Below, piece after piece: positions 4,997 through 62,672 of a DNA stretch of 64,000 nt. The stretch is taken from positions 4,643 to 68,642 of the forward strand of contig JACOZV010000001.1 in the NCBI GenBank assembly GCA_016181175.1. Direction: 5' to 3'. This DNA comes from Candidatus Yanofskybacteria bacterium. GTDB lineage: Bacteria; Patescibacteriota; Minisyncoccia; 2-02-FULL-40-12; IGHO2-01-FULL-4-A. The position numbers were made by a program, and so were the translations under genes. The notes beneath the pieces were generated by a model that was not told the origin of the DNA, searched no databases, and was given only the letters and a program-made list of their open reading frames with translations. Every line of letters starts with the position of its first letter. Within the stretch, counting starts at the first letter, position 1.

Positions 4997-6970
4997 GTGG
5001 AAAATATTCTCAAAGATCTTAATGATAAACAAATTGAGGCAGTACGGGCCATAGAAGGCCCGGTTTTAATATTGGCCGGAGCTGGTAGCGGAAAGACTCG
5101 CGCGCTAACACATCGCATGGCCCACATGATTGAACAAAGCATACCAGCGCACAATATCCTCGCCATCACATTCACCAACAAAGCCGCCGGGGAAATCAAA
5201 GACAGAATTTACTCACTTTTAGGACCGGCAGAACGGCAACCGGCAGCTAGCCCATGGATGGGGACATTCCATTCAATTTGTTTGAGAATTTTACGTCATG
5301 AAATTAAAAATCTCGGCTATACGGCTAACTTTGTCATCTATGACGAGGATGATCAACTATCTTTAATCAAAAATGTGATGCAAGAGTTAGAAGTTGAGAC
5401 CAAAAAGTTTAACCCCAAAAATATACTTGGCCGCATTTCGGCGTTTAAAAGCGAACTGGTCAACTATGAAGAGTTCGAGGGTAAAGCGCGCGAGTATTTT
5501 GAAAAAATCGTTGCCCCTATTTATGCCGGCTACCAAATAGCTCTCAAAAAAAACAACGCTTTGGATTTTGATGATCTGATCATGCTCTGTGTTAGGCTCT
5601 TCCAAGAAAACCCGCAAATACTTGAAAAATATCAAAATATTTTCCGATATATACTCGTTGACGAATATCAAGACACCAACCACAGCCAATATATTTGGAT
5701 TAATCTTCTTGCTCAAAGGCACAGAAATCTTTTCGTAATAGGTGATGATTACCAGAGTATCTACTCATTTCGTCTAGCCAACATCCGCAATATTTTAGAC
5801 TTTGAAAAAGACTACCCGGAAGCCAAGGTTATAATGCTTGAACAAAACTATCGCTCTACTCAAAACATATTGGCCGCCGCTAACAACATCATCATTCAAA
5901 ACAAAAATCAAAAACATAAAAAACTTTGGACTGAAAATAACGCTGGTGAGGAAATAATACTCAAGGAAACGGCTAACGAGCGGCGGGAAGGTGACTATGT
6001 GATTGAAATGATAAAAAGCAACCTGAAACAGGGTCGTGACTTGCAGGACTTCACAGTCCTGTATCGTACTCACGCACAATCACGCGCCGTTGAAGAAGCG
6101 ATGATCAAACACGGCTTGCCTTATCGCGTTGTAGGCGGGGTTAAGTTTTATCAAAGACGGGAAATAAAAGATATTCTGGCTTATCTGCGGCTGGCAATCA
6201 ATCCGAATGATCTTGTAAGCTGGGACAGAATTTATAACGTGCCTGGCCGTGGCATAGGCCAAACAACCTGGCAAAAAATAAAAGAGGCGACAAAACAAAA
6301 CACGTTAAAAACAGTAAAAGATATTACTTCTGAATCCGGCATCGGTCAAAAACAAACAACCGCCCTAAAATCGCTTGGCAAACTCATCGAAGAATTGTCA
6401 CAAAAATCTTCTGAATTCTCCCCGTCCCAACTGATTAAATATGTTCTGCAAAAAACCAGCTATGAATCTTACATCAATGACAAAACAACCGACGGAGAAG
6501 AACGCTGGGAAAACGTCAAGGAAATCTTTACCGCTACTCATAAGTATGATGGTGAAAAACCGCTAGAAGGTCTCGGCAAATTCTTAGAAGAAGTAGCATT
6601 AATTCAGGAAACCGACAAAATTGAAAAAGGGAAAAATCTGATTAGTTTGATGACTGTCCATTCGGCCAAAGGTTTGGAATTCCCCGTTGTTTTCATGATA
6701 GGTATGGAAGATGGTATTTTCCCGCACTCACGCGCGTTATTTGAACCGACTGAATTAGAAGAAGAAAGACGGCTTTGCTATGTCGGGGTAACGCGCGCCA
6801 AAGAAAGGCTGTATTTAACTTACTGCCGAGAACGCGCCTTATACGGCTCCACCCAATTCAATCCGCCATCAAGATTTTTGTTTGAAATACCGGAACATCT
6901 GGTAAGTTTCTCGCCGCTTAAACAAATTGAATATGCGAGGGATTGGGATGATAAAATTGATTATTACTAA
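4997..6970 (+). CDS. pcrA: ATP-dependent DNA helicase, UvrD/PcrA/Rep family
   Basis: GAGSGKT Walker A, TFTNKAAGE, VDEYQDTN, and a C-terminal helicase domain (GLEFPVVF, YVGVTRAK). Confidence 0.88.
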   Translation: MENILKDLNDKQIEAVRAIEGPVLILAGAGSGKTRALTHRMAHMIEQSIPAHNILAITFTNKAAGEIKDRIYSLLGPAERQPAASPWMGTFHSICLRILRHEIKNLGYTANFVIYDEDDQLSLIKNVMQELEVETKKFNPKNILGRISAFKSELVNYEEFEGKAREYFEKIVAPIYAGYQIALKKNNALDFDDLIMLCVRLFQENPQILEKYQNIFRYILVDEYQDTNHSQYIWINLLAQRHRNLFVIGDDYQSIYSFRLANIRNILDFEKDYPEAKVIMLEQNYRSTQNILAAANNIIIQNKNQKHKKLWTENNAGEEIILKETANERREGDYVIEMIKSNLKQGRDLQDFTVLYRTHAQSRAVEEAMIKHGLPYRVVGGVKFYQRREIKDILAYLRLAINPNDLVSWDRIYNVPGRGIGQTTWQKIKEATKQNTLKTVKDITSESGIGQKQTTALKSLGKLIEELSQKSSEFSPSQLIKYVLQKTSYESYINDKTTDGEERWENVKEIFTATHKYDGEKPLEGLGKFLEEVALIQETDKIEKGKNLISLMTVHSAKGLEFPVVFMIGMEDGIFPHSRALFEPTELEEERRLCYVGVTRAKERLYLTYCRERALYGSTQFNPPSRFLFEIPEHLVSFSPLKQIEYARDWDDKIDYY

Positions 6971-6980
6971 TAATCCCCAA

Positions 6981-7811
6981 ATGAGTTTAGTCACTGAAAT
7001 TAAAAATGAACTTAATCAGCTCGGATTAAAACCCAAAAAATCGCTTGGGCAGAATTTTTTAATAAACGAGGGGATTTACAAAAAAATTATAGATATTGCT
7101 GAAATCAAACCAAGTGAAACTATTGTTGAAATCGGACCGGGGCTGGGAACATTGACTGAATATATAGCTGGTTCAAACGCTCGCCTTTTAGGCATAGAAA
7201 AAGATGAAAATTTGGCAATTTATCTCAAAAAAAAATTTGAAAACCGTATTAACATCAAAATTCTCCAAGAAGACATATTAAAATTTGACCCCGTAAAAAA
7301 CGGGTTAGAAACTCGCGGCTATAAACTTTTAGGGAATATTCCATACTATTTAACTTCGCATCTGATCAGATTAGTACTTGGGGAATGGCCGTTGCCCAAG
7401 TTGATGGTTTTGATGGTACAAAAGGAAGTCGCCCAACGAATCATTGCGAAACCGCCGAATACGAATTTGCTCGCGGTATCAATCCAATATTATGCCAGAG
7501 TGGAGATCGCTGGCATGGTCTCGAAGGGAAGCTTTTGGCCGCAACCCGAGGTTGATTCTGCTATAATAAAGCTAACGCCAAAAACCGAAATACCAGAGGC
7601 CGAAGAAACAGAAAGGTTTTTTAAAGTATCAAAGGCGGGATTTTCCGGCACAAGAAAACAACTTATAAATACTTTGTCGGGCGGATTAAAATTATCTAGG
7701 GGAATAGTAAGCTCAAAGCTCCTTTCGCTAGGTATCGCCACTCAAAGACGTGCCGAAACATTAACTCTAGACGAATGGCAAAATATCGCTACCTCGCTCT
7801 TGCCCCGTTAG
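6981..7811 (+). CDS. rsmA: 16S rRNA (adenine1518/1519-N6)-dimethyltransferase
   Basis: LGQNFL signature, EIGPGLGTLT SAM-binding motif, NIPY motif. Start moved from 6927 to the ATG at 6981 to avoid overlap with the helicase. Confidence 0.85.
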   Translation: MSLVTEIKNELNQLGLKPKKSLGQNFLINEGIYKKIIDIAEIKPSETIVEIGPGLGTLTEYIAGSNARLLGIEKDENLAIYLKKKFENRINIKILQEDILKFDPVKNGLETRGYKLLGNIPYYLTSHLIRLVLGEWPLPKLMVLMVQKEVAQRIIAKPPNTNLLAVSIQYYARVEIAGMVSKGSFWPQPEVDSAIIKLTPKTEIPEAEETERFFKVSKAGFSGTRKQLINTLSGGLKLSRGIVSSKLLSLGIATQRRAETLTLDEWQNIATSLLPR

Positions 7812-9611: not shown

Positions 9612-10595
9612 TTGATGTCGTTAAAATTAAAAATTTCTTTGGGAATTCTTCTGCTAATCGCCGGATTTTTGCTTGTTCGCATAGGTTTGTTTTTTAAGCA
9701 TAGCGTTCAAACAGCGACAACAGCAAATATAAACCGGCAAGTCGCTGGAGTTAATATTTTTGACCCTTCAAACATAGATTCTGACAACGACGGTATTCCT
9801 GACAATCTTGAAGCCTATTATCGAACCGACCCATTTAACCCCGACACTGACGGCGATGGTTACTTGGATGGCGAAGAAATAGTTTCAGGTTTTAGTCCGA
9901 TTAAACAAGAAATTGCCAGCGAACGTAATAAAAATACCAATATCACCGTTTCCTTTACCAACCATGTTATGGAAGGTTTGTACGTCGGGGATTTGAGCCC
10001 GAAGAAATTGGGAGAAGAAAAATTCGCAAAAAACATAGACAACCTTACTTTGGCAACAATAGATGACGCCGCCAGATCGTTAAACCCGCCAATTGTGACA
10101 GAATACGGGTTGGCCGTAATTTCAGAGTCCAAGCAAAACCAAAACGAATACATAAACAATGTTGATTCTTTATTGGAGGGTCCGTTCCTCAATTCATTTA
10201 TGCAACAACCCTACATATTAAGCCGGGCTGCAAATTTCATGACTACAAGCAACAACTCCGAAGCCGCAGAAATCTTCAAAAATCTTTCGCTTTCTTACTC
10301 AAGCGCCTACAATCGGCTTTTGGCGGTATCGGTACCCAAAAATTGGGTTCCATTCCATTCCCGTCTTCTCCAACTTTTCCAAAAATTTTCGCTTAACTAT
10401 CTGGCTTTAACAAAGGCACCAGAAGATCCGCTTCTAGCTATGACCGCCTTACAAGATTTACAAAATAACTTTATAGAAATTGATTCGTCGTTAATTCAAG
10501 AGCTTAAAATTTTAATACAAACACAGGATTTACAGATACCCAACACTCCCTTGTTTAGCATTTTAGACCTTTTGAGTACACAGAAAAACCAATAA
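9612..10595 (+). CDS. membrane-anchored secreted protein with Asp-rich calcium-binding-type repeats
   Basis: N-terminal TM helix; DSDNDGIPD and DTDGDGYLDGEE repeats of thrombospondin type 3 / EF-hand-like D-x-D-x-D-G form. Confidence 0.4.
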   Translation: MMSLKLKISLGILLLIAGFLLVRIGLFFKHSVQTATTANINRQVAGVNIFDPSNIDSDNDGIPDNLEAYYRTDPFNPDTDGDGYLDGEEIVSGFSPIKQEIASERNKNTNITVSFTNHVMEGLYVGDLSPKKLGEEKFAKNIDNLTLATIDDAARSLNPPIVTEYGLAVISESKQNQNEYINNVDSLLEGPFLNSFMQQPYILSRAANFMTTSNNSEAAEIFKNLSLSYSSAYNRLLAVSVPKNWVPFHSRLLQLFQKFSLNYLALTKAPEDPLLAMTALQDLQNNFIEIDSSLIQELKILIQTQDLQIPNTPLFSILDLLSTQKNQ

Positions 10596-11746
10596 TGGTC
10601 AACCGTCACACAAAAGCAATACTTAGCATAATACTAATCGGTTTCTTGGTTTTATACCCGGCACAAATAGCACGCTCAGCCGGCGCCATCGTTTACGTCC
10701 TCAAGGAATTCACCTTGGACGTTGTTGCCAGAGTGCTTGCCAGAACATTTTTGGGAAGGATGGATAATGCAATTACCGAATTCATAAGCAAGAATGGCCG
10801 AGACGACGCCCCCAATTTTATACAAAACTGGCGTGATTTTCTTGCCAACGCACAATACAGAGGGGAGGACGCAACAAGGGCAATAATCGGAGATGCTATA
10901 GACGCCGGCTCGGGCACTATTTGCCAATATTTGAGAAATCCTCTCGGCGCCGCTTTCGGGGCAAGCAAAATAGATGGTTTCAATCCTTCTTTATACAGAA
11001 TTGACTCTCTTCAATACTACAAACTGCGCAACAGATGCACTCTGCCAGCCGGTTTCAATATTGACGCTTTCAGAAACGACTTCGCCGGCGGAGGCGGCTG
11101 GACAGCTTGGAACCAGTTGATTCAACCGCAAAATAACGTATGGGGAGTGGTCAGTGACACACTAAACGAACTGACGAGCCAAAGAGTTTTTGAAGAAAAA
11201 ACCGATCAGGGTGAAGCTAATTCCGGAGGTGGCTTCACATCAAAAAGAAGCGGTGACAAGGGCTGTGTTTTGAGAGGCCTTAATACGACCTGCTTAATAC
11301 TTGGCGAGGTATTGACTCCGGCTGACATGTTTAAAGAAACTGCCGGCAAAATGAATTCGGCTGAATTTAATTGGCTGACAAGTTCCGATGAATTAAGCGA
11401 GGTCATCGCTTTCGCGGCATCGTGGGTTACGGACAGGTTGTCCAATCTTGCCGGAGCATCCACGCCTGATAATTTTACCCCGGACACGGCGAGAGGCACC
11501 GCGCTCCAAGAAAAAGCCAGACAGGACTGTATCAAAGCAGGAGAAAATACTTGCACGCAAAAAGCTAAAAAACTGGATTGTGACGCATCGGCCAGCGGGG
11601 GAGACGGCGGAAGCGGCGGAAGTGAAGATTCTGCGGGCAGTGGCGGCAGTGGCGGTTCAGCAAATGTAAATTGCGTAGAGGTAATTGATCAGGGAATTTA
11701 CAACTCATGCATGGCGGAGGTTAACAATAACTGCACTATCCAATAA
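10595..11746 (+). CDS. secreted Cys-containing hypothetical protein with a Gly/Ser-rich linker
   Basis: N-terminal hydrophobic signal or anchor; several Cys pairs; GGDGGSGGSEDSAGSGGSGGS low-complexity linker. Confidence 0.4.
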   Translation: MVNRHTKAILSIILIGFLVLYPAQIARSAGAIVYVLKEFTLDVVARVLARTFLGRMDNAITEFISKNGRDDAPNFIQNWRDFLANAQYRGEDATRAIIGDAIDAGSGTICQYLRNPLGAAFGASKIDGFNPSLYRIDSLQYYKLRNRCTLPAGFNIDAFRNDFAGGGGWTAWNQLIQPQNNVWGVVSDTLNELTSQRVFEEKTDQGEANSGGGFTSKRSGDKGCVLRGLNTTCLILGEVLTPADMFKETAGKMNSAEFNWLTSSDELSEVIAFAASWVTDRLSNLAGASTPDNFTPDTARGTALQEKARQDCIKAGENTCTQKAKKLDCDASASGGDGGSGGSEDSAGSGGSGGSANVNCVEVIDQGIYNSCMAEVNNNCTIQ

Positions 11747-11750
11747 TTAA

Positions 11751-13970
11751 ATGCTTAACAAGAAGTATAAAAAGCTTTACGTAATACTGGCGGTAATCAT
11801 AATACTTGCGGTTTTTGTTCCACAACATGAAGTAAAAGCAGTTTCTCTCTGTCCTGCCGTTTTTAGGGATTGTGTTATCGGTGTGCAGGAATGGATGATG
11901 GAGTTGGTAGGTAAAGCGATCGGTTGGGCTGCCAACTTACTGGATGTTTTTTTACAAAATCAGCCAATAAGCGGAGTTTTTGTTGTTGATCAAGGCTGGA
12001 CTACTGTCAGAAACTTTGTAAATTTGTTTTTTATTCTTGCTTTGATTATCATGGCTTTCGGCACGATTTTTGATATTAAAAAATATACCTGGCGAGATAT
12101 GCTTCCCGGATTTATAATCGCCGCTCTGCTTGTAAATTTTAGTCTTGCTATCGGCCAATATATTGCTGGGGTTGCCAATGGACTAAGTGGTGTTTTTTTG
12201 AGGGAAATTGGCCAAACTTCGGTTAACGCCGCCCAGGGTTCGGGTATACAAAAACTAGCAACAACTATTCCTACCGGGGTTAATTTGCTCGGCGGCACGG
12301 CCAGTGTAGCAATTAGCGGCATTTTTGCTCTAATTTTTTTAATTATTGTTTTTCTTGCATTTTTATCTGTCGCAATTTTTTCGATAGTTAGACTTGTTGC
12401 AATTTGGTTTCTTCTTATTATCTCCCCGATTGCTTGGCTGGGTTATGCCTTGCCTAATCTTAGAAGTCAAACGGCCAATTGGTGGAAACATTTTTTGTGT
12501 TGGTGTTTTTTTCTTCCTTATTACCTGTTTTTTATGACATTCGCGGTAATATTCGTCAGGAATAAAAACCAAATAGGTGCGTTACTTCCTACTACTTCTG
12601 GTGGTCCTATTCGTGAAATTTTCGGAAGTCCCGGTGCTATCAATGATTTTCTTTTTTATATTTTAAGCCTTATTTTTCTAGTGGGTGGATTAGCTTTAGC
12701 AATGAAACTGGCTTGCGCAAGCGGGACTTATGTAAGATCGGCTTTCGGGGTAATAGAATCAAGGGTGCGTAAATACGCCCCCGGGGCGGCATATGTCAGG
12801 GGAGCTAAAGAGGGACTGAAGGAACGTGTGGCAGAAATCCAAGAAAAAGGAATGCTTGGTATCGGTGGCGCCCAGCGTGCTCGCATACAGGAAGCTACGG
12901 CAAAAGGCTGGATCGCCGGCATACCAGGTAAGGTACCGGGCGCAACAGAAGAAGCTTCTAGAGCCAAGGTGGCAGAAGTAGATAAGGAAATAAAACGCTT
13001 GCAATTGCTTAATCTCACCCTAGACCAATTAAATATCCGCCTTAAAAAAGCCGGTGGCCCAGAAAAAATAGCTGCGCTAAAACTCAAAGCAGAAAATGGC
13101 TGGCTAGAAGCAGGTGACTTGGGTGAAATAAATAAAACAATAAGAGAAGCTGGTGGTGGCAGAAACGCTTTGGGCGCTTCGATTATCCAGTCCTTGAAAA
13201 AAGGCAAGTTCCATGAAATGGCGCAAACTACGGCTCAAAAAGAATTCATATTTAACAACCTGGAAGATGTTGGCGTAAAGAAGGAATTTGGCCTAAACAT
13301 GGCAGAAAGTAGAGAAATCATGAATGAAACTATTGCCAGACAACTACTGGAACTCTACTCTGGAGATATGAAAGAAGTCCAAGATAAAGTTGCAGAAACT
13401 GTCAAGAAAAATATTGACAACTTTGCCAAAGATAAGTCAGCCAGAGAAGCTATGGTAACCAGGGTAATAACGCCCACCACCACAAGGGCTGAAAAGAAAA
13501 TTATGGAATTGGCGGCAAAAACTATGGTTGAAAAGAAAGAGGTTAACAGCTGGAGCACCAGAAGGTCTATTTTGCAATTAACTGGCGGCATAGACCCAAC
13601 TACCGGCGATGCACTGACAGTAGAAGGCAGGACCCTGGCAAAAGAAATCAAAGACAACAACACCCTCTTCAAGGAAGAAATGGATTACAGAGCTTCACAT
13701 GGCATCTTGCCAGCCGTTGACCTAACACCGGCTCAACGAACTGATGTACAACGTCAGATAGAAACAAATATATCAAACGGCTTGATCCGCGGGTTAAGCG
13801 CCGAAGAAATGAAGACCCCAGAAATTTTCAACTCCATCAATTCTATAATGCCTAATATTCCAACCGCTAAACAAGCCAAATTCAAGCAAGAATTGTTGGG
13901 CAAAGGCGCTGACAGAAGGAAAAGAGAAGCATTTGATAAAGCCGCATTGGGTCCACCCATACCTTATTAA
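11751..13970 (+). CDS. VirB6/TrbL-like polytopic membrane protein with a long hydrophilic C-terminal tail
   Basis: Signal-like N-terminus, about 6 TM segments across residues 90-320, then roughly 400 aa of charged coiled-coil-like tail. Assignment rests on topology and position upstream of VirB3/VirB4-like genes only. Confidence 0.4.
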   Translation: MLNKKYKKLYVILAVIIILAVFVPQHEVKAVSLCPAVFRDCVIGVQEWMMELVGKAIGWAANLLDVFLQNQPISGVFVVDQGWTTVRNFVNLFFILALIIMAFGTIFDIKKYTWRDMLPGFIIAALLVNFSLAIGQYIAGVANGLSGVFLREIGQTSVNAAQGSGIQKLATTIPTGVNLLGGTASVAISGIFALIFLIIVFLAFLSVAIFSIVRLVAIWFLLIISPIAWLGYALPNLRSQTANWWKHFLCWCFFLPYYLFFMTFAVIFVRNKNQIGALLPTTSGGPIREIFGSPGAINDFLFYILSLIFLVGGLALAMKLACASGTYVRSAFGVIESRVRKYAPGAAYVRGAKEGLKERVAEIQEKGMLGIGGAQRARIQEATAKGWIAGIPGKVPGATEEASRAKVAEVDKEIKRLQLLNLTLDQLNIRLKKAGGPEKIAALKLKAENGWLEAGDLGEINKTIREAGGGRNALGASIIQSLKKGKFHEMAQTTAQKEFIFNNLEDVGVKKEFGLNMAESREIMNETIARQLLELYSGDMKEVQDKVAETVKKNIDNFAKDKSAREAMVTRVITPTTTRAEKKIMELAAKTMVEKKEVNSWSTRRSILQLTGGIDPTTGDALTVEGRTLAKEIKDNNTLFKEEMDYRASHGILPAVDLTPAQRTDVQRQIETNISNGLIRGLSAEEMKTPEIFNSINSIMPNIPTAKQAKFKQELLGKGADRRKREAFDKAALGPPIPY

Positions 13971-14476
13971 TGGAGTACAATTCGTTAAAACTTAGTCCTT
14001 ATTCAGTTGATGGTATGCAAACTCCTGGTTTTAATTATGGCTTATTCCAAGACAAACTGGATAACTTACCGACTAATTTAGTTGATTTTCTGCTGGATTC
14101 TTCTGTACCGGATTTCATTATGAATTTGACCCAAAAACATGTTCAATTAAGTATACGTGGTCCTGACATTGCTAGACTGATACGTGATATAGTAATAGGA
14201 GATGTCTTTGTGGGAGATATGCCACAGGAATTATCCAGGCGGTTAGGAACTGATCTGGCAACTTCCAGAGAAATAGCTAATCAAATTGCCTCTCAACTTT
14301 TTACACCGATTCTTGAAGATATTAAAAAAGTACAAATGGTAAAATTTCCGGGTAAATTGCCGGCAAAACCCGTTTCGCAACCAGCTCCCCAAGTTAAACC
14401 TACGGAGACACACTATCAAGGCGAAGAATTACCAGAATCAGGTGGTAATATTATAGATTTGCGAAGCAAGTCATAG
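13970..14476 (+). CDS. hypothetical protein
   Basis: ORF shares ATGA start/stop overlap with the upstream gene; no recognisable motif. Confidence 0.35.
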   Translation: MEYNSLKLSPYSVDGMQTPGFNYGLFQDKLDNLPTNLVDFLLDSSVPDFIMNLTQKHVQLSIRGPDIARLIRDIVIGDVFVGDMPQELSRRLGTDLATSREIANQIASQLFTPILEDIKKVQMVKFPGKLPAKPVSQPAPQVKPTETHYQGEELPESGGNIIDLRSKS

Positions 14477-14508
14477 GTTATAGGTTATAGCTGATAGGTA
14501 ATAGCTTA
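14474..14508. repeat. left inverted-repeat block flanking the four-helix-bundle gene
   Basis: GGTTATAGG...AGGTAATAGCTTA; its reverse-complement blocks recur at 14919-14948. Confidence 0.6.
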
Positions 14509-14552
14509 AAAAATGAGTTCTAGAAATAGGAGGCTAGGACGCAAAATAAAAA

Positions 14553-14918
14553 GTGGATAAAATTCATTCGTATAGAGACTTAGTGGTATGGCAAAAGTCC
14601 ATTGAACTAGTGATAGAAATATATGAACTAACGGATAAATTTCCAAAAGAAGAAATATACGGGCTAATTTCGCAATTAAGGAGAGCTGCCGTTTCAATTC
14701 CTTCTAATATCGCCGAGGGCAGGTATCGTGGGACAAGAAAAGATTTTAGGCAATTTCTTCTTAACGCTTACGGCTCTGGCGCTGAAGTTGAAACACAATT
14801 GGTTATTGCAAATAAATTGCCAAAAACAAAAAATTTAAATTATGCCAGAGCAAATAAAATTCTAAATGAAGTAATGCGAATGTTAAATTCACTAATCAAA
14901 AAATTGGAAAATTCATAA
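14553..14918 (+). CDS. four-helix-bundle protein of the 23S rRNA intervening-sequence (IVS) type
   Basis: WQKS..L....Y..T..FPKEE..GL.SQLRRAA.SI..NIAEG, typical of the TIGR02436 / S23-ribosomal-like family. Confidence 0.7.
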   Translation: MDKIHSYRDLVVWQKSIELVIEIYELTDKFPKEEIYGLISQLRRAAVSIPSNIAEGRYRGTRKDFRQFLLNAYGSGAEVETQLVIANKLPKTKNLNYARANKILNEVMRMLNSLIKKLENS

Positions 14919-14948
14919 CTATAACCTATTACCTATAAGCTATTACCT
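14919..14948. repeat. right inverted-repeat block (CTATAACC...TAAGCTATTACCT)
   Basis: Reverse complement of the blocks at 14474-14508. Confidence 0.6.
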
Positions 14949-14953
14949 GCATC

Positions 14954-15241
14954 ATGAGATTCCAAGTTCCACAATTCATAGAAACAGAAACCAAGATTGT
15001 CGGGCCTTTTACATTTAAGCAGTTTTTGTTTCTAGCAGTCGGGGCAGTAATAATTTTTATACTTCAATACATTATTAGTAATTTTACTTTTTTAATAGTT
15101 GCAAGTTTACCAATCGCCATGTTGTTTATTGCCTTGGCATTTTATCAGATAGACGGTATGCCATTACCGCAATATCTACTGACGGCATTATCATATTTGA
15201 CTGGACCCAAAAGGTACCAATTCCGCAAAAATAACGATTAG
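14954..15241 (+). CDS. VirB3-like small two-TM membrane protein
   Basis: 95 aa with two hydrophobic helices, directly upstream of VirB4; conserved arrangement in T4SS loci. Confidence 0.4.
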   Translation: MRFQVPQFIETETKIVGPFTFKQFLFLAVGAVIIFILQYIISNFTFLIVASLPIAMLFIALAFYQIDGMPLPQYLLTALSYLTGPKRYQFRKNND

Positions 15242-15252
15242 AAACCGAGATT

Positions 15253-15894
15253 ATGGCCACACCCCAAAAAAACCAATCTACTAGAGATTTTGTAGAAATC
15301 GCCGACGTTCGCGATAACATTGTTATTTTAAAAAATGGCTCTCTACGATCGGTAATTGAGGTCAACTCAATGAATTTTGAACTAAAATCCACCGACGAAC
15401 AAACGGCTATCATACAAGCTTTTCAAAATTTCTTAAATTCCATAGACTTTCCGCTTCAAATAGCAATAAATTCACGTAAACTAGATATAGGGCCTTATCT
15501 GAAATCACTTGATACCTTAACCCAAAGTATTTCCAGTGAATTATTAAAAATACAAGGCATAGAATATACACGATTCATCAAAGGACTGACCGAGCTTGCC
15601 AACATTATGTCCAAAAAATTTTATATTTCCGTCCCGCTTTATGTAACAGAAACAATAGGCAAGGGGGGGCAAAAAACTGGCATATTTGATGCTTTCAAAA
15701 GCATTGTCAGTCCTTCTAAATTTGTTAAAACACTAACGGACGAAGAATTGGCAAACTATAAAATACAGCTTGAACAAAGAATCCAATTTATAATGGGCGG
15801 CATCGGAGGCTTGGGCATAGAGGCGCGAGTGCTGAACAAAGAGGAACTAATGGGCCTTTATTACTCGTATTATAACCCCGGACATCACTTATAA
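15253..15894 (+). CDS. VirB4-like protein, N-terminal fragment (separated from the ATPase ORF by a -1 frame change and a stop)
   Basis: 213 aa ends at TAA 15892-15894; the next ORF's ATG is at 15897 in a different frame. Combined length of about 807 aa matches full-length VirB4. Confidence 0.45.
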   Translation: MATPQKNQSTRDFVEIADVRDNIVILKNGSLRSVIEVNSMNFELKSTDEQTAIIQAFQNFLNSIDFPLQIAINSRKLDIGPYLKSLDTLTQSISSELLKIQGIEYTRFIKGLTELANIMSKKFYISVPLYVTETIGKGGQKTGIFDAFKSIVSPSKFVKTLTDEELANYKIQLEQRIQFIMGGIGGLGIEARVLNKEELMGLYYSYYNPGHHL

Positions 15895-15896
15895 AT

Positions 15897-17681
15897 ATGG
15901 CCTTATTCGGTAAAAAACCACAACCAACCGTTCAGCCAATGGAACCGCCAGTAAAAACACTGGACGATTTACTAGCTCCGTCGGCCATAGATATTTCTTC
16001 TAATTATCTGCAAATAGGCGACACTTTTGCCCGCACGCTTTTCGTCGCAACTTACCCAAGATATCTAAATACCAATTGGTTCTCGCCGGTAGTTAATATG
16101 GACCGTCCTTTTGATGTTTCTGTTTTTGTGCATCCAGAAGATACTGCCCAGATGTTAAAACAACTGCGCGACCGTTTGGGACGGCTTCAGGCACAGGAAA
16201 TAGAGGAACAATCGTCCGGTAAAGTAAGGGACCCAGTGCTAGAAACGGCTATCGGCGATATTGAAACTCTGCGAGACAAACTTCAGCAAGGAACAGACAG
16301 GTTTTTTAAGTTGGGGGTATACATAACAATTTATGGCAACTCGCTGAAGGATCTCGATGACACAGAAAATAAAATCAAGTCAATTCTTGACGGCCAATTG
16401 GTTTATTCCAAACAGGCAACATTCAGAATGAAGGAGGGATTCTTTTCCACACTACCGCTTGATGACGACCAACTTCAAATACACAATTCACTGAATACCG
16501 AACCGATCTCCTCGCTTTTTCCTTTTGTATCCTACGATTTAACCACGGACAAAGGAATACTTTATGGAATAAATACCCACAATAATTCCCTTATTTTATT
16601 TGACAGGTTCAGCATGGAAAACGCCAACATGGTTATATTCGGCAAATCCGGCGGCGGTAAAAGCTATACGGTAAAACTGGAGATTTTAAGAAGTCTGATG
16701 TTTGGGACGCAAGTTTTTGTAATTGACCCGGAAAATGAATATAAATTTCTCGCCGATACTGTAGGCGGTACTTCAATTAAAATATCCATAGCTTCACCGC
16801 ACCATATCAATCCGTTTGATTTGCCCAAGCCATTGCCAGATGAAAGCCCCGCCGATGTCCTGCGCTCTCATGTAATAAATCTCATGGGACTTTTCAAGTT
16901 AATGCTTGGGGCGCTTTCTGCGGAGGAAGAGGCGATTTTGGACGAGGCCATCAACCAAACTTATGCGATTAAGGACATTACGCCGCAAACTGCTGATTTC
17001 AAAAATATAGTGCCTCCTTTGATGTCAGACTTCCAAAATATCCTTGAAAGTATGGCAGGCACTGAATCTTTGGCTATTAGGATCAAAAAATATACGGAAG
17101 GGACGTTCGCCGGTTTTCTGAACAATCCGACCAACGTTGAACTGGGCAATCAGCTGATAGTTTTTAGCATCCGCGACATGGAGGAGGAGCTACGCCCGAT
17201 AGCAATGTACCTCGTGCTCAATTTTATCTGGACGCAGGTTAGAACTGAATTAAAAAAGCGTATTTTGGCCGTAGACGAGGCGTGGGTACTGATGAAATAC
17301 GAGGCCGGAGCGGCATTCTTGTTCAACATAGCCAAACGTGCCCGCAAATATTATCTGGGTCTAACTACAATTTCCCAAGATATACCGGACTTTATGGCCT
17401 CTTCTTATGGCAAACCAATCGTGACTAATTCTTCACTGCAATTACTGTTAAAACAATCCCCGGCAGCAATTGACCTGGTAAAACAAACGTTCAACCTTAC
17501 TGACGCAGAAAAGTTTTATCTTTTGGAGTCACGAGTAGGTCACGGGCTGTTTTTTGCCGGAATTAATCATGTCGCGTTGCGAGTAGTGGCTTCTTACGCT
17601 GAAGATCAGATAATTACTTCCGACCCTAGACAGATATTGGAAATAGAAGAAGCCAAGAAAGAATTAGCTCAACAGAGTTGA
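15897..17681 (+). CDS. virB4: type IV secretion system ATPase VirB4/TrbE/CagE family (C-terminal ATPase portion)
   Basis: Walker A FGKSGGGKSYTV, IDPENEY, Walker B ILAVDEAW. Confidence 0.8.
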   Translation: MALFGKKPQPTVQPMEPPVKTLDDLLAPSAIDISSNYLQIGDTFARTLFVATYPRYLNTNWFSPVVNMDRPFDVSVFVHPEDTAQMLKQLRDRLGRLQAQEIEEQSSGKVRDPVLETAIGDIETLRDKLQQGTDRFFKLGVYITIYGNSLKDLDDTENKIKSILDGQLVYSKQATFRMKEGFFSTLPLDDDQLQIHNSLNTEPISSLFPFVSYDLTTDKGILYGINTHNNSLILFDRFSMENANMVIFGKSGGGKSYTVKLEILRSLMFGTQVFVIDPENEYKFLADTVGGTSIKISIASPHHINPFDLPKPLPDESPADVLRSHVINLMGLFKLMLGALSAEEEAILDEAINQTYAIKDITPQTADFKNIVPPLMSDFQNILESMAGTESLAIRIKKYTEGTFAGFLNNPTNVELGNQLIVFSIRDMEEELRPIAMYLVLNFIWTQVRTELKKRILAVDEAWVLMKYEAGAAFLFNIAKRARKYYLGLTTISQDIPDFMASSYGKPIVTNSSLQLLLKQSPAAIDLVKQTFNLTDAEKFYLLESRVGHGLFFAGINHVALRVVASYAEDQIITSDPRQILEIEEAKKELAQQS

Positions 17682-17775
17682 GCTAATTCTTTCAATTCCT
17701 AATTACTAATTACTAATTTTTAAATAAATCCCAATCCTTTAAATTCCAGTAACTAAATTGTTTAGAAATTAGAAA

Positions 17776-18204
17776 TTGCGTATGCCCGCTGACAACCAAT
17801 ACTATTACGACCTTGCAACAGACCGAGCCAGCTATCAAAAACTGCGCGAAGAAGATTTGGCGCGCCAACAAGCAGAAGAAGAACAGAATCAAGAACGGAT
17901 GGGTTGGGGAACATTTCTGGTTGCATTGGTTTTAAGCTTAATTGCCGATGCAGTTGAGCTTATTACGATAGGAACGCTTGGTTGGTTCGTCGGATTCGTC
18001 GTTGACCTTATATTGATGACAATGTTAGGATTTTCAAGAGCAGGACGAAAACAATGGAAAAAGTGGATATGGGGACCTATAATAGAGAAGGTGCCGATAC
18101 TTGCCGCAATTCCGTTTTTCCGCGCCACATTTCTGACATGGGCATTTATTTCCTCACGTAGTCCCATACTGCAACAACTAAGCAAAGCAGCTTCGCCTAA
18201 GTAA
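17776..18204 (+). CDS. small membrane protein, hypothetical
   Basis: Acidic N-terminus, then 3 hydrophobic segments. Confidence 0.35.
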   Translation: MRMPADNQYYYDLATDRASYQKLREEDLARQQAEEEQNQERMGWGTFLVALVLSLIADAVELITIGTLGWFVGFVVDLILMTMLGFSRAGRKQWKKWIWGPIIEKVPILAAIPFFRATFLTWAFISSRSPILQQLSKAASPK

Positions 18205-18217
18205 GCTAAAATAAAAA

Positions 18218-19294
18218 ATGCTAAAAAAACTTGCGATTTCTTTTATCTTTATCCTCATCATCACAGCCACTTTCCTGGCCGGTTATTTGTTCAGCCGTAA
18301 ATCAGACTTGCCAGATCAACAAGCCTTGATAAATAATTCGCTAGTTGAACGCTTTAATCAAACTGAAGAAAAATACGTTGAGCCGACTGGCCTTTTTGAG
18401 CTTACATCTGGCGAAGCAAGTTTTCCAACGATTCGAGCGAACGGCGAAATATGGTACTACACGCCCAAAAATGGAGAGATACGCTCTGCTTCATTTAAAA
18501 ACCTTCTTGCCGGTTCTGCCCTTGTCGCAAAAATTCAACCCAACGCAATCAATATCAGCTGGGGATCAGATAAGACATTGCTGGCAAATTATTCAACAGG
18601 CGCGATTTACTACGATCTCGGTTCAAATTTTTCCAAAAAATATGAGATTAACATAAAAAACCCCGTTCTATCCAAAACAGGAAACAAAACCGCCTACATT
18701 TATTTTAACCAAGAATCGGGAGAAGGTAATATCAGCATCGCCAACCCCAAATTAGAGTCATTCAAAAATGTTCTTCCGACTCGTTTTACAAACTGGCAAA
18801 TCAAATGGTTGGGAGAAAACAAACTAGCGCTTACTAAACCGCCGACTCTGGAAAGTTCTCAAGCGTCACTTTTTACTTTGGACACGGAAAATGGAAAAAC
18901 ATTACAAAATATAATCAACTTAAAAAATAATCTTGAAGTCGCGTGGTCGCCTGACGAACAAAAAATAGTTTATTCTTATGTTGACTCTTCAACCGGGCAA
19001 AACGGTTTGTATCTTATGAATTTGGGCGCCAAAGAAGAAATGCCCCTCAATCTGAACTATACTGCTTCTAAATGTGTTTGGAGTTTTGATAATAAAACCG
19101 TTTACTGCGCCGGGGTAGATTCATTCGTGTCCTTAGACGCGACAGCGGCAAATGCGGGCACCCAGACAATCGCTAACTCCCAAAGCATTGACGCCTCTTC
19201 CGCCACAAATCTTTTTCTAACCAGCACTGGCGACTATATTATCTTCAAAAATATCAAAGACGGTAAGTTGTACGGGCTACATTTGGCACAGTGA
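18218..19294 (+). CDS. membrane-anchored secreted protein, β-propeller-like (TolB-like repeats)
   Basis: N-terminal TM anchor; repeated motifs LSKTGNKTAYIYFN and WSPDEQKIVYSY. Confidence 0.4.
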   Translation: MLKKLAISFIFILIITATFLAGYLFSRKSDLPDQQALINNSLVERFNQTEEKYVEPTGLFELTSGEASFPTIRANGEIWYYTPKNGEIRSASFKNLLAGSALVAKIQPNAINISWGSDKTLLANYSTGAIYYDLGSNFSKKYEINIKNPVLSKTGNKTAYIYFNQESGEGNISIANPKLESFKNVLPTRFTNWQIKWLGENKLALTKPPTLESSQASLFTLDTENGKTLQNIINLKNNLEVAWSPDEQKIVYSYVDSSTGQNGLYLMNLGAKEEMPLNLNYTASKCVWSFDNKTVYCAGVDSFVSLDATAANAGTQTIANSQSIDASSATNLFLTSTGDYIIFKNIKDGKLYGLHLAQ

Positions 19295-30154: not shown

Positions 30155-30164
30155 AACTAAAATT

Positions 30165-30275
30165 TCTAATTAATCTAATTACTAATTGATCTAAATAAAC
30201 CTCCAGTATCTAATCCCCAATTAGTTATTAGTCATTTGTTATTATTCGGTAATTAGAGCAATTAGAAATTAGAAA
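30165..30275. repeat. intergenic repeat, copy B (CTAATTACTAATT ... TAAATAAAC ... TTAGAAATTAGAAATT)
   Basis: Shares ordered motifs with 17693-17781. Confidence 0.45.
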
Positions 30276-30276
30276 T

Positions 30277-30810
30277 TTACAAATTTGGCTCAGCCAAATT
30301 TGTGTACACATTTTCCACATCCTCATTATTGTCTAGCGCTTCAAAAAGTTTATCCAGTTTTTGATGGATTTCGGGGGCAGTTTCAATCGGAGCGTGAGGG
30401 TTCCAGTTTTTATCAAACATCCAGTTAAGTGAATTTTCTGGCACCATTTTAATTTCATGTTCCGCAAGAATGTGTTTGATTTCATTTACGGTCCGATTTT
30501 TATTATCAGTTATAGCTATAATTATAAGAGCAATACCGGCTGGTCCCATGGTTTGTATTACTAACTCATTCAGCGCAGTAGTGTCTTTATCGCCGGCTTT
30601 TTTTATTGCCCGTTCAATATTATCCTTTGGCATATTGAGAACTCGCGCTTCGTCAATAACAGATTGAAGTTTGTAATTAGTGGAAGGATCCATACCTTCA
30701 CGTGCGGCAACTGATATTTTCTTTGCCAACTTACTAAAAAGTTGACCCTTTTTCTGGTCGCTGATTCCTTTTTTGTGTTTTATCTGACTCCATTTAGAAT
30801 GCCCGGACAT
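30277..30810 (-). CDS. yebC: YebC/PmpR family DNA-binding regulator
   Basis: MSGHSKWSQIKHKKG N-terminus characteristic of the TACO1/YebC family. Confidence 0.8.
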   Translation of the reverse strand: MSGHSKWSQIKHKKGISDQKKGQLFSKLAKKISVAAREGMDPSTNYKLQSVIDEARVLNMPKDNIERAIKKAGDKDTTALNELVIQTMGPAGIALIIIAITDNKNRTVNEIKHILAEHEIKMVPENSLNWMFDKNWNPHAPIETAPEIHQKLDKLFEALDNNEDVENVYTNLAEPNL

Positions 30811-39332: not shown

Positions 39333-40523
39333 ATGGCTAAAAGAAAAACAATCTATTTAGATTATGCTGGGACGACACCGATAGATCCGCGGGTGGAACG
39401 GGTGGTTTTGAAGCATTTGCGGGAGAGCTGGGGTAACGCTTCGTCGGTACATGAGATTGGACGACAGGCGAGAGAGGTTATTGAAGATTCACGCAAAGCA
39501 ACGGCAAGGGTGCTTGGAGTAAAATCAGAAGAAATAATTTTTACCGGTTCAGGCACGGAGTCGGCGAATTTAGCGATATTCGGAGTAGCGAGGGCTTATA
39601 AAAAATACGGCAAGCATATTATAACTTCCAAAATCGAACATCCTGCCGTATTGCGTGCCTGTGAATATTTGGATAAGAACGAAGGGTTTAAGGTAACTTA
39701 TCTAGATGTAGACAAAAACGGATTAATTGACCCAGAAGTTTTACGCAGTGCATTGCGATCAGATACAATACTAGTTTCGATTATGTATGCCAATAATGAA
39801 ATCGGCACAATACAACCCATTACGGAGATTTCCAAAATTATTAGAAATTTTCGCCAAAACCTAAAACCTATAACCTATAACCTAAAACCTTTTTTCCATA
39901 CCGATGCCTGCCAAGCGGCCGGAGCGTTAAACTTGAATGTTAACCAGCTTGGAATTGATCTATTAACCCTAAACGGATCTAAAATATATGGTCCCAAGGG
40001 AACTGGTTGTCTTTTTATCAGACGGGGTACCGAACTTGTGCCGCAGATAGTTGGTGGCTCTCAAGAAAGGGGACTTCGTGCCGGCACTGAAAACCCGGCG
40101 TTAATTGCGGGTTTTGCCAAAGCGTTGGAGTTGGCTGACAAAAGCAAGGTTGGGGAGAGAAAGCGGTTGGTTAAACTTCGCGATTATATGATACGCCAAG
40201 TCTTAAAAACAATTCCCGATAGCCGTCTCAATGGCGACCCAATCAAACGTTTGCCTAATAATATAAATATTTCATTTAAAAACGTAGACGGCGAGATGCT
40301 CATGCTCGCGCTTGATCAAAAAGGCATCCAGGTCTCAACAGGATCTGCTTGCACTTCAACTTCAACAGAGCCGTCACACGTGCTTAAAGCGCTAGATTTA
40401 TCTAACGAGCTTGCGAAGGGAAATATCCGCATTACTCTTGGCCGGCAAACAACAAAAAAGGACATTGATAGTGTCCTGAAAATACTCGCGTCGCTTATCC
40501 AAAAAACTTTGTCAAAACATTAA
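39333..40523 (+). CDS. iscS: cysteine desulfurase (IscS/NifS class)
   Basis: SGTESANLAI; HTDACQAAG; PLP-Lys region LTLNGSKIYGPKGTG; SGSACTS active-site Cys loop. Confidence 0.85.
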   Translation: MAKRKTIYLDYAGTTPIDPRVERVVLKHLRESWGNASSVHEIGRQAREVIEDSRKATARVLGVKSEEIIFTGSGTESANLAIFGVARAYKKYGKHIITSKIEHPAVLRACEYLDKNEGFKVTYLDVDKNGLIDPEVLRSALRSDTILVSIMYANNEIGTIQPITEISKIIRNFRQNLKPITYNLKPFFHTDACQAAGALNLNVNQLGIDLLTLNGSKIYGPKGTGCLFIRRGTELVPQIVGGSQERGLRAGTENPALIAGFAKALELADKSKVGERKRLVKLRDYMIRQVLKTIPDSRLNGDPIKRLPNNINISFKNVDGEMLMLALDQKGIQVSTGSACTSTSTEPSHVLKALDLSNELAKGNIRITLGRQTTKKDIDSVLKILASLIQKTLSKH

Positions 40524-62218: not shown

Positions 62219-62617
62219 ATGAGAAGCGTTTTAGAAGAAATCCGCCAACAGCCAGAACACATAAGGCATATGTTTATGTGGCTTTGTGTAATTATCGCTT
62301 TTTCTACGGTTGGTTTTGTTTGGTTCCGTTCAACAAGCAAACAGTTTGTGGCTTTGATGCATCCCGAGGAAGCGCAAGAACGAGCGTTGGCTGAAAAGGA
62401 AAAAACCCTTCAACAAGGGCTTCGACTGAGCACAGCCGAACGTCCTCAGGGCAAGCAGCCGTCACCGTTTGCGACCATTTTTGACTCCTGGCGTAACCTT
62501 CAGGCAAACATTTCAGAGTTGTTTGTGGGATCGGAATCAAACTTGGAGATAAATAATAATGAGACGGGAAGCGTAAAAATAGAATTACCGCCACAAAAAC
62601 TGCCAATTTCACAATAA
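62219..62617 (+). CDS. membrane-anchored hypothetical protein
   Basis: One N-terminal TM; no recognisable motif. Confidence 0.3.
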
Positions 62618-62672
62618 ACAATTTTCAATTTTTAGTTTTCAATTTTCATTTAAAATTGAAAATTTTATTTTT

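Follow-up and report, generated by a model that had tools for sequence, protein, structure and literature searches.

The 64,000-nt stretch of contig JACOZV010000001.1 analyzed here, hereafter the window, carries a 477-nt element between two protein genes of a type IV secretion system (T4SS)-like operon. The element (14477-14953, + strand, boundaries good to about ±3 nt) extends from the stop codon of a 168-aa gene to the ATG of prgI and is best filed as a cassette of the intervening sequence (IVS) type outside rRNA. It consists of a gene for a four-helix-bundle (4HB) protein—of the family that is found in 23S rRNA IVSs—enclosed by two inverted tandem arrays of heptanucleotides that can pair into a closing stem. 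The element very probably represents a class of 4HB genes inside heptamer hairpins that is both mobile and widespread. This general architecture, a 4HB gene enclosed by inverted heptamer arrays, does not seem to have been described explicitly so far: no paper linking the 4HB family to flanking heptamer arrays outside rRNA was found in the literature, of which older work was thinly covered, so that a prior mention is possible. To our knowledge, it has not been established since the early 1990s where rRNA IVSs and their S23p proteins come from, how they move, or what they do. Heptanucleotide repeat hairpins are a separate unexplained feature of several bacterial groups.

The cassette exactly fills the gap between the upstream stop TAG (14474-14476) and the downstream ATG at 14954, as a preliminary description of this DNA had stated; all coordinates given there hold. 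It features four parts on the + strand: the left arm; a spacer; the 4HB gene; and the right arm. The left (5′) arm (14473-14508) comprises 5.1 heptamers, namely ATAGGTT, ATAGGTT, ATAGCTG, ATAGGTA, and ATAGCTT, as judged by Tandem Repeats Finder, inverted-repeat pairs, and the fold. The right (3′) arm (14915-14948) comprises 5.0 heptamers of the AACCTAT type, complementary to the left arm as judged by Tandem Repeats Finder, inverted-repeat pairs, and the duplex. It overlaps the 4HB stop codon, and 5 nt separate its end from the prgI ATG. The mutually inverted flanking blocks of the preliminary description are therefore real—13 nt are 100% complementary between AGGTAATAGCTTA (14496-14508) and TAAGCTATTACCT (14936-14948)—but they are not separate boxes and form inverted tandem arrays with a period of 7. 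The spacer between the left arm and the start of the 4HB gene (14513-14560), read from the sequence, holds the motif AGGAGG at 14530-14535 and a 15-codon upstream open reading frame (ORF; ATG 14513 to TAA 14558-14560), which overlaps the GTG start of the 4HB gene. The latter gene (14553-14918) encodes 121 residues.

The arms are predicted to form a closing stem (14471-14957), in which 14471-14508 pairs with 14916-14957, as judged by RNAcofold/duplexfold and the minimum free energy (MFE) fold. The predicted stem is imperfect and has about 32 bp. Since both arms are tandem arrays, pairing is possible in several registers, and registers of 27 nt at 89%, 30 nt at 83%, and 38 nt at 79% exist besides the perfect 13 nt. 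That the flanks can pair, as had been suggested, is borne out by two calculations: The duplex energy of the arms is −31.7 kcal/mol vs −12.3 ± 3.4 for shuffled arms, and the MFE fold of 14460-14960 (501 nt; −117 kcal/mol, z −3.1) pairs both flanks as well. The flank-to-flank inverted-repeat score of the gene amounts to 39, with a z of 10.5 vs shuffles. The predicted pairing runs on into the host flanks. The stop TAG of the 168-aa gene falls within the first heptamer, at the stem base, and CAU 14472-14474 pairs with the prgI AUG 14954-14956, which places the upstream stop opposite the downstream start. In addition, a 4-nt direct repeat, TCAT, is present at both cassette ends (14471-14474 and 14952-14955). 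Removal of the cassette together with one copy of it yields an overlapping TCATGA stop/start and leaves the C-terminus of the upstream protein unchanged. This repeat may be a target duplication or chance and is suggestive at most.

The 121-aa protein belongs to the IVS-type 4HB family, as had been recognized from its sequence. It scores above the curated cut-offs of PF05635 (23S_rRNA_IVP; E 7.5e-37, 126.2 bits vs 33.8, residues 8-113 of 121) and of TIGR02436 ("four helix bundle protein"; 123.6 bits vs 24), and matches NF008911 with 140.2 bits vs a cut-off of 137. It is homologous to the solved XCC0516 (2gsc; E 3.2e-21), a 4HB homologue that forms a homopentamer; no protein-level difference was found between PF05635/TIGR02436 proteins of this kind and the window protein. 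The conserved motif RxxxSxxxNxxE is found at R44-E55, and a single-sequence AlphaFold model is all-helical at low confidence (predicted local distance difference test, pLDDT, 62.5). The exact protein was retrieved from one 941-nt contig only, which stems from the same locus. A phage collection contained no homologue, and tblastn detected no second 4HB gene in the window. Distant homology also exists to Avd, the accessory protein of diversity-generating retroelements, a relationship of the 4HB family that has been remarked on (PMC10053308). The matches to the Avd models PF22296 (E 2.8e-4, 21.8 bits, below the cut-off of 40) and NF033474 (E 7.7e-6, 26.2 bits, below 80) are weak. An identity as Avd was rejected because both scores lie below the cut-offs and no reverse transcriptase is encoded among the nine neighboring ORFs scanned. 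A link of the element to group I introns, also put forward earlier, is unsupported: Rfam gives no match at E ≤ 1 in 13900-15400, and its matches in the whole window are 10 tRNAs only. The cassette does not reside in a 23S rRNA helix (9, 25, or 45), as it is flanked by two protein genes and Rfam finds no rRNA in the window.

The build of the cassette recurs across the gene family. It was followed in two sets of loci: the 80 loci closest by VirB4 identity, and 80 independent metagenome loci picked by 4HB protein similarity alone (47-70% identity, GC 0.30-0.68), the latter with a profile from a 7-sequence alignment. When all ORFs in the VirB4 loci were searched with a profile, 20 4HB genes emerged, all on the operon strand and nearly all bracketed by inverted tandem arrays. 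The units of these arrays vary from one clade to another while the two arms stay complementary, and they include GGAATTA, AAGTATT, TTGTATC, AGAAGTA, CGCATAA, AATTTTT, and AATTTCT, among others. Orthologous loci lack the gene or carry family members with repeats of their own, the opposite of what the preliminary description had named as its refutation. An inverted-repeat score of at least 33 is reached by 13 of 18 4HB genes vs 2 of 1047 other ORFs in the related loci (Mann-Whitney p 6e-10), and by 28 of the 71 evaluable 4HB genes of the independent metagenome set. Period-7 arrays lie on both sides of 39 of the 89 evaluable genes of both sets and on one side only of 26 (random windows, 3.5%). 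The best arm period is 7 in 38 of 45 cases vs 8% of random segments, and the arrays have a median of 4.4 units per side. Conceivably, an ordinary small gene could lie by accident between low-complexity stretches, given an AT-rich genome; the genome has a GC content of 41% and contains other heptamer arrays. This explanation is refuted by the comparison with shuffles, by the rarity of such scores among control ORFs, by the period of 7 in most arms, and by the occurrence of the build up to a GC content of 0.68, so that chance is exceedingly improbable.

The arms have a polarity relative to the gene. The unit of the 5′ arm is mostly AG(T/G)NNNN (30 of 38 vs 46% expected, in samples that are not independent), this 5′ arm is G-rich and C-poor (32% vs 13%), and the AG-type arm lies 5′ of the gene in 25 cassettes vs 5. 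The outer ends of the arms lie close to the neighboring genes: the median distance to the upstream stop is 1 nt where that gene is co-oriented (37 of 45), and the one to the downstream start is 6.5 nt (co-oriented in 38 of 45). Neighbors are co-oriented with the 4HB gene in 76 of 92 cases upstream and 68 of 86 downstream, probably only mildly above the usual bacterial background. Similar proteins tend to have similar arms (Spearman 0.32, Mantel p 5e-4), and the nearest protein relatives of the window gene have TAGGTTN/TAGCTTN units like its own. Two functions of the units themselves were rejected. Stops in all frames through a TAG or TAA in each heptamer are ruled out by GC-rich units with CAG (AGGGGCC, AGTGGTC), and a left arm acting as a multi-register Shine-Dalgarno sequence, masked by a right arm resembling its complement, is not general, as AGT units outnumber AGG units.

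The contexts of the family reach well beyond secretion operons. On plasmid pANA02 of Anabaena sp. 90 (L163 1998-2366), a 4HB gene resides between cas6 and cas4, with CAGGTGA ×10 facing TGTCACC ×4. A Geminocystis plasmid (L165 2001-2363) has another, with a parA-like gene on one side and parB on the other, where GGGAAAA faces TTTTCCC. Both genes are annotated as "four helix bundle protein." A further context is a gene whose predicted product resembles an ABC-type ATPase. In L138 (1306-1776), a cassette occupies the whole tRNA-Met/tRNA-Glu spacer. No cassette within rRNA was found among the 160 loci.

At the junction occupied in the window, the five closest loci by VirB4 identity (L002-L006, 67-86%) carry no 4HB gene; the junctions of the three closest, L002-L004, were examined at base resolution. 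In L004 (VirB4 82% identical), the junction is empty, with the start following directly upon the stop (TAA|ATG; …AAGTAA|ATGAGATTCC…). The cassette is thus inserted, not ancestral, at this site, in agreement with the preliminary description. The usual gap before prgI is short, 0-6 nt in 26 of 50 orthologous junctions, which indicates that the prgI junction is tightly coupled. The junction between the 168-aa gene and prgI is a hot spot for varied insertions. L002, the closest relative, carries there a different, ORF-less insert of 170 nt (6775-6945; −89 kcal/mol, z −9.7), which matches no Rfam family and whose basal stem again closes beside the stop and the ATG. L003 carries a 1.3-kb insert (5715-7007) with a reverse-strand ORF of 357 aa that has no Pfam match. 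The related loci L055 (577-1022) and L064 (6334-6804) share 79% DNA identity from the prgI ATG onward and agree in the upstream C-terminus. The segment lying exactly between this TAG and ATG, however, holds in each a 4HB gene of its own, the two being only 46% identical in amino acids and having unrelated arrays—a cassette swap. Conversely, a single cassette family is shared by L127 and L138, whose flanks are unrelated; the proteins are 68% and the arms 96% identical. The mobility of the cassette is supported by these comparative data. The earlier suggestion was that the operon mRNA is cleaved or the element is mobile; the two are not mutually exclusive.

These placements also bear on a possible role of the 4HB gene as a resident regulator, whose pentameric protein would bind arrays of about five units and tune the T4SS-like and other operons. 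The gene is indeed placed repeatedly just upstream of prgI, in 10 of the 80 VirB4 loci and 4 of the 80 loci picked by 4HB similarity, and these prgI-adjacent genes occupy at least seven separate places in the neighbor-joining tree of the protein; in the clade of the window gene, genes from other contexts branch among them. The array length near five units, the homopentameric homologue, the homology to the nucleic-acid-associated Avd, and the co-occurrence with the gene-less arrays described below would suit such a protein as well, although its binding to arrays is hypothetical. The closest relatives, however, lack the gene, the L004 junction being empty, and the same family occurs in contexts as varied as cas, par, and tRNA loci and the gene for an ABC-type-ATPase-like product; for these two reasons, a host regulatory role is less likely. 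Cassettes of distant subfamilies, moreover, swap at the prgI junction. A resident regulator is accordingly considered unlikely.

Familiar kinds of mobile element do not account for the cassette. No recombinase or transposase is encoded in or beside it among the ORFs scanned. The arms of three cassettes in a single locus, L068, differ (AAGTATT, AGAAGTC, and CGCATAA). Short direct repeats at the flanks are only weakly enriched (3.91 vs 3.51 ± 0.14) and have no fixed length. A transposon or miniature inverted-repeat transposable element (MITE) was rejected on these three grounds. An integron gene cassette was rejected likewise, as the ORF has tandem-heptamer repeats at either side and the scanned neighbors encode no integrase; no formal attC search was made. 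A pair of identical cassettes in L137 was ruled out as proof of transposition because both copies lie within a 1.16-kb tandem duplication.

Inverted pairs of heptamer arrays occur in two forms, as judged by a bimodal loop length: 350-415 nt with a 4HB gene and 2-150 nt without one. The screen yielded 30 gene-less hairpins, 26 of them between co-oriented genes, and their polarity is that of the cassettes (AG-type arm 5′ in 12 vs 2). Their units match the cassette arms of the same locus in 35% of cases vs 2.5% across loci, and they are present in 9 of 15 loci with a cassette vs 9 of 65 without (Fisher p 5e-4). Three are found in the window: CTAATTA/TTAGAAA (17694-17777) and TCTAATT/AATTAGA (30160-30278), each in a spacer between co-oriented genes, and CAATTTT/AAAATTG (62613-62671), just upstream of the + strand ATG 62675. 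Two further examples lie in related loci. L002 has a gene-less TAGGTAA/AACCTAT hairpin just after virB4 (9780-9860), which belongs to the unit family of the window cassette. In L068 (7651-7748), 14 perfect CATAACG heptamers pair with CGTTACG units 65 nt downstream, and the CATAACG unit also occurs in the arms of one of the three 4HB cassettes of that locus. Heptamers of the cassette type are found even within a coding sequence. The related motif that had been noticed in-frame inside iscS corresponds to five tandem heptamers, AAAACCT/ATAACCT, at 39856-39890 in a cysteine desulfurase gene (39333-40523); the unit family is that of the right arm of the cassette. Compared with the solved IscS 4r5f, they add 12 residues in frame (about FRQNLKPITYNL), and no inverted partner was found near them.

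What the arms do is best described, by a narrow preference, at the level of the transcript: an IVS-type cassette that rides on the operon mRNA and is handled in the manner of an RNase III substrate. The cassette would be transcribed within the operon RNA, presumably by co-transcription with its host genes. Its arms would then pair and loop out the 4HB gene, bringing the upstream stop opposite the downstream AUG, and RNase III may cut the stem as it does in rRNA IVSs, which are excised without the ends being re-ligated. A cut would release the 4HB RNA and leave the upstream mRNA as well as a prgI-virB4 mRNA with a very short leader. An uncut stem would let a terminating ribosome re-expose the AUG, so that coupling would probably survive. 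We propose that such insertions persist since the host operon would work either way.

This transcript-level reading is preferred because the build is identical to that of an experimentally processed rRNA element and because the cassette has no expression signals of its own; no promoter-like or terminator-like site was found on the + strand in 13900-15300. It is preferred as well because of the stop/start geometry, the fixed polarity relative to transcription, and the occurrence in a tRNA spacer. The involvement of RNase III gains weight from the 23S IVS of Coxiella burnetii, which likewise has a stem and heptamers: RNase III cleaves this IVS in vitro, and the 5′ cut has been mapped at the first heptamer (PMC4990558). 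Several points weigh on the other side. Cleavage of the cassette stem is suggested by analogy only, no RNase III motif was found in the 64-kb window, and the S23p protein of Coxiella is seemingly not made in vivo (PMC4990558). Mismatches in the arms show no wobble excess (G·U 41 vs A·C 33, p 0.42), and none of the three mismatches in the best 27-nt pairing of the window is a wobble; with no such bias, nothing points directly to sense RNA over DNA as the selected form. As stop and start codons lie within the stem base, translating ribosomes would partly melt the stem. Finally, a detectable two-sided stem is absent in about 40-60% of the family members of the metagenome sample.

The lack of wobble bias would fit with arms that act mainly at the DNA level, as hairpin or cruciform substrates for insertion, excision, and exchange, the RNA stem being a by-product and the agent being host recombination or an enzyme in trans. 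This is a serious alternative and is compatible with the transcript-level reading, though it is regarded as possible rather than probable. In its favor, there are filled and empty sites, different cassettes at one junction of related genomes (L055/L064), and one cassette family in unrelated flanks (L127/L138). The recurrence of arm units in gene-less arrays of the same locus, the surplus of gene-less hairpins in loci with a cassette, and the weak excess of short flanking direct repeats point in the same direction. A sequence-specific enzyme is nevertheless unlikely, given the arm variation among copies in one genome (L068), and none is encoded in or beside the cassette in the form of a recombinase or transposase. 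The fixed arm polarity relative to transcription—shared by the gene-less hairpins—would not be predicted for a symmetric DNA structure, and for the homologous rRNA element, processing at the RNA level has been demonstrated.

Known elements resemble the cassette in part: ORF-bearing 23S rRNA IVSs, such as the Leptospira IVS; intergenic heptanucleotide repeats, such as the cyanobacterial STRR; and genes enclosed by inverted repeats. The Coxiella IVS, situated in helix 45, has a length of 428-444 nt, an S23p ORF of the PF05635 family, a 28-bp terminal stem, and 3-4 tandem GACAGAT heptamers just before the ORF, the number of which varies between strains (PMC4990558). ORF-bearing 23S IVSs share with the cassette the protein family in the loop, a stem of about 28-32 bp, a length of about 430-480 nt, and heptamers before the ORF. 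They differ in their host, which is the tip of an rRNA helix, whereas that of the cassette is an mRNA junction of two protein genes. In addition, the heptamers make up both arms of the cassette in full, whereas those of Coxiella follow the 5′ stem and precede the ORF. The sporadic distribution of ORF-bearing 23S IVSs suggests transfer (PMC4990558), and 23S_rRNA_IVP ORFs are known from 16S and 23S insertions of the candidate phyla radiation (CPR; PMC11270868).

Heptamer arrays have been described as paired arrays in Xanthomonas (GGGAATC) and tandem arrays in Nostoc (GGGGA(C/T)T), mostly intergenic between co-oriented genes, and convergent pairs are often able to form stem-loops (PMC4692102). 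Like the cassette, these hairpins feature tandem heptamers in intergenic DNA that are paired convergently. They were, however, treated alone and unlinked to 4HB genes (PMC4692102), whereas in the cassette, the gene sits in the loop. Repetitive extragenic palindromes with their associated tyrosine transposases (REP/RAYT) and MITEs are comparable in that a gene is enclosed by a repeat in inverted orientation, further copies of which are scattered over the genome without a gene. The cassette, by contrast, has no transposase-like protein, and its arms are tandem arrays that are not conserved within one genome. A tentative and rather doubtful extension would unite these observations: 4HB cassettes and gene-less hairpins might be the autonomous and non-autonomous elements of one system, in which an Avd-like pentamer reads about five heptamers (in RNA or folded DNA), one unit per subunit, and drives spread and exchange among stop/start junctions, tRNA spacers, and rRNA helices. 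Such a system would also have given rise to rRNA IVSs and to the heptanucleotide repeats known from cyanobacteria and Xanthomonas.

The host of the cassette belongs to the CPR/Patescibacteria; each of the 80 loci closest by VirB4 comes from a metagenome-assembled member of the Patescibacteria (Paceibacterota, Yanofskybacteria, and others). The T4SS-like operon lies inside a region that carries + strand genes throughout (9612-19294). The 168-aa gene upstream of the cassette (13970-14476, + strand) has no family match; its orthologues in L002-L004 have a C-terminal GGNIIDLR motif in common. Directly 3′ of the cassette follows the PrgI-family (VirB3-like) gene (14954-15241, + strand; PF12666, E 1e-13). 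VirB4 appears to be split in two genes, both in the window and in orthologous loci: a 213-aa ORF (15253-15894, + strand) resembles the N-terminal portion of the protein, and the next ORF (15897-17681, + strand), for a VirB4-like ATPase, represents the ATPase part, each as judged by profile matches to VirB4 models. A perfect 17-bp hairpin (17657-17693; GAAAGAATTAGCTCAAC / GTTGAGCTAATTCTTTC, 3-nt loop) extends across the stop codon of the VirB4-like gene. In L014, the homologue of the 213-aa gene resides between long inverted repeats (864-901 / 1957-1994, 38 nt at 82%) and is followed by a 49-nt palindrome (1958-2049). It yields the top control score (101) of the inverted-repeat screen.

The present findings untie the IVS build—a heptamer stem with a 4HB gene—from rRNA and place it at coupled operon junctions, between tRNA genes, and within cas and par operons, in bacteria with 30%-68% GC. 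This recurrence across many bacteria makes the origin of the rRNA spacers a testable question. The finding also carries a warning for annotation. Genes of the 4HB family within cas loci have been treated as candidate associates (PMC3936711, PMC10910872), and the reported "CRISPR association" of the family may reflect cassette insertion. 4HB genes in CRISPR-cas or T4SS operons are to be read as passengers, not as components, of these systems.

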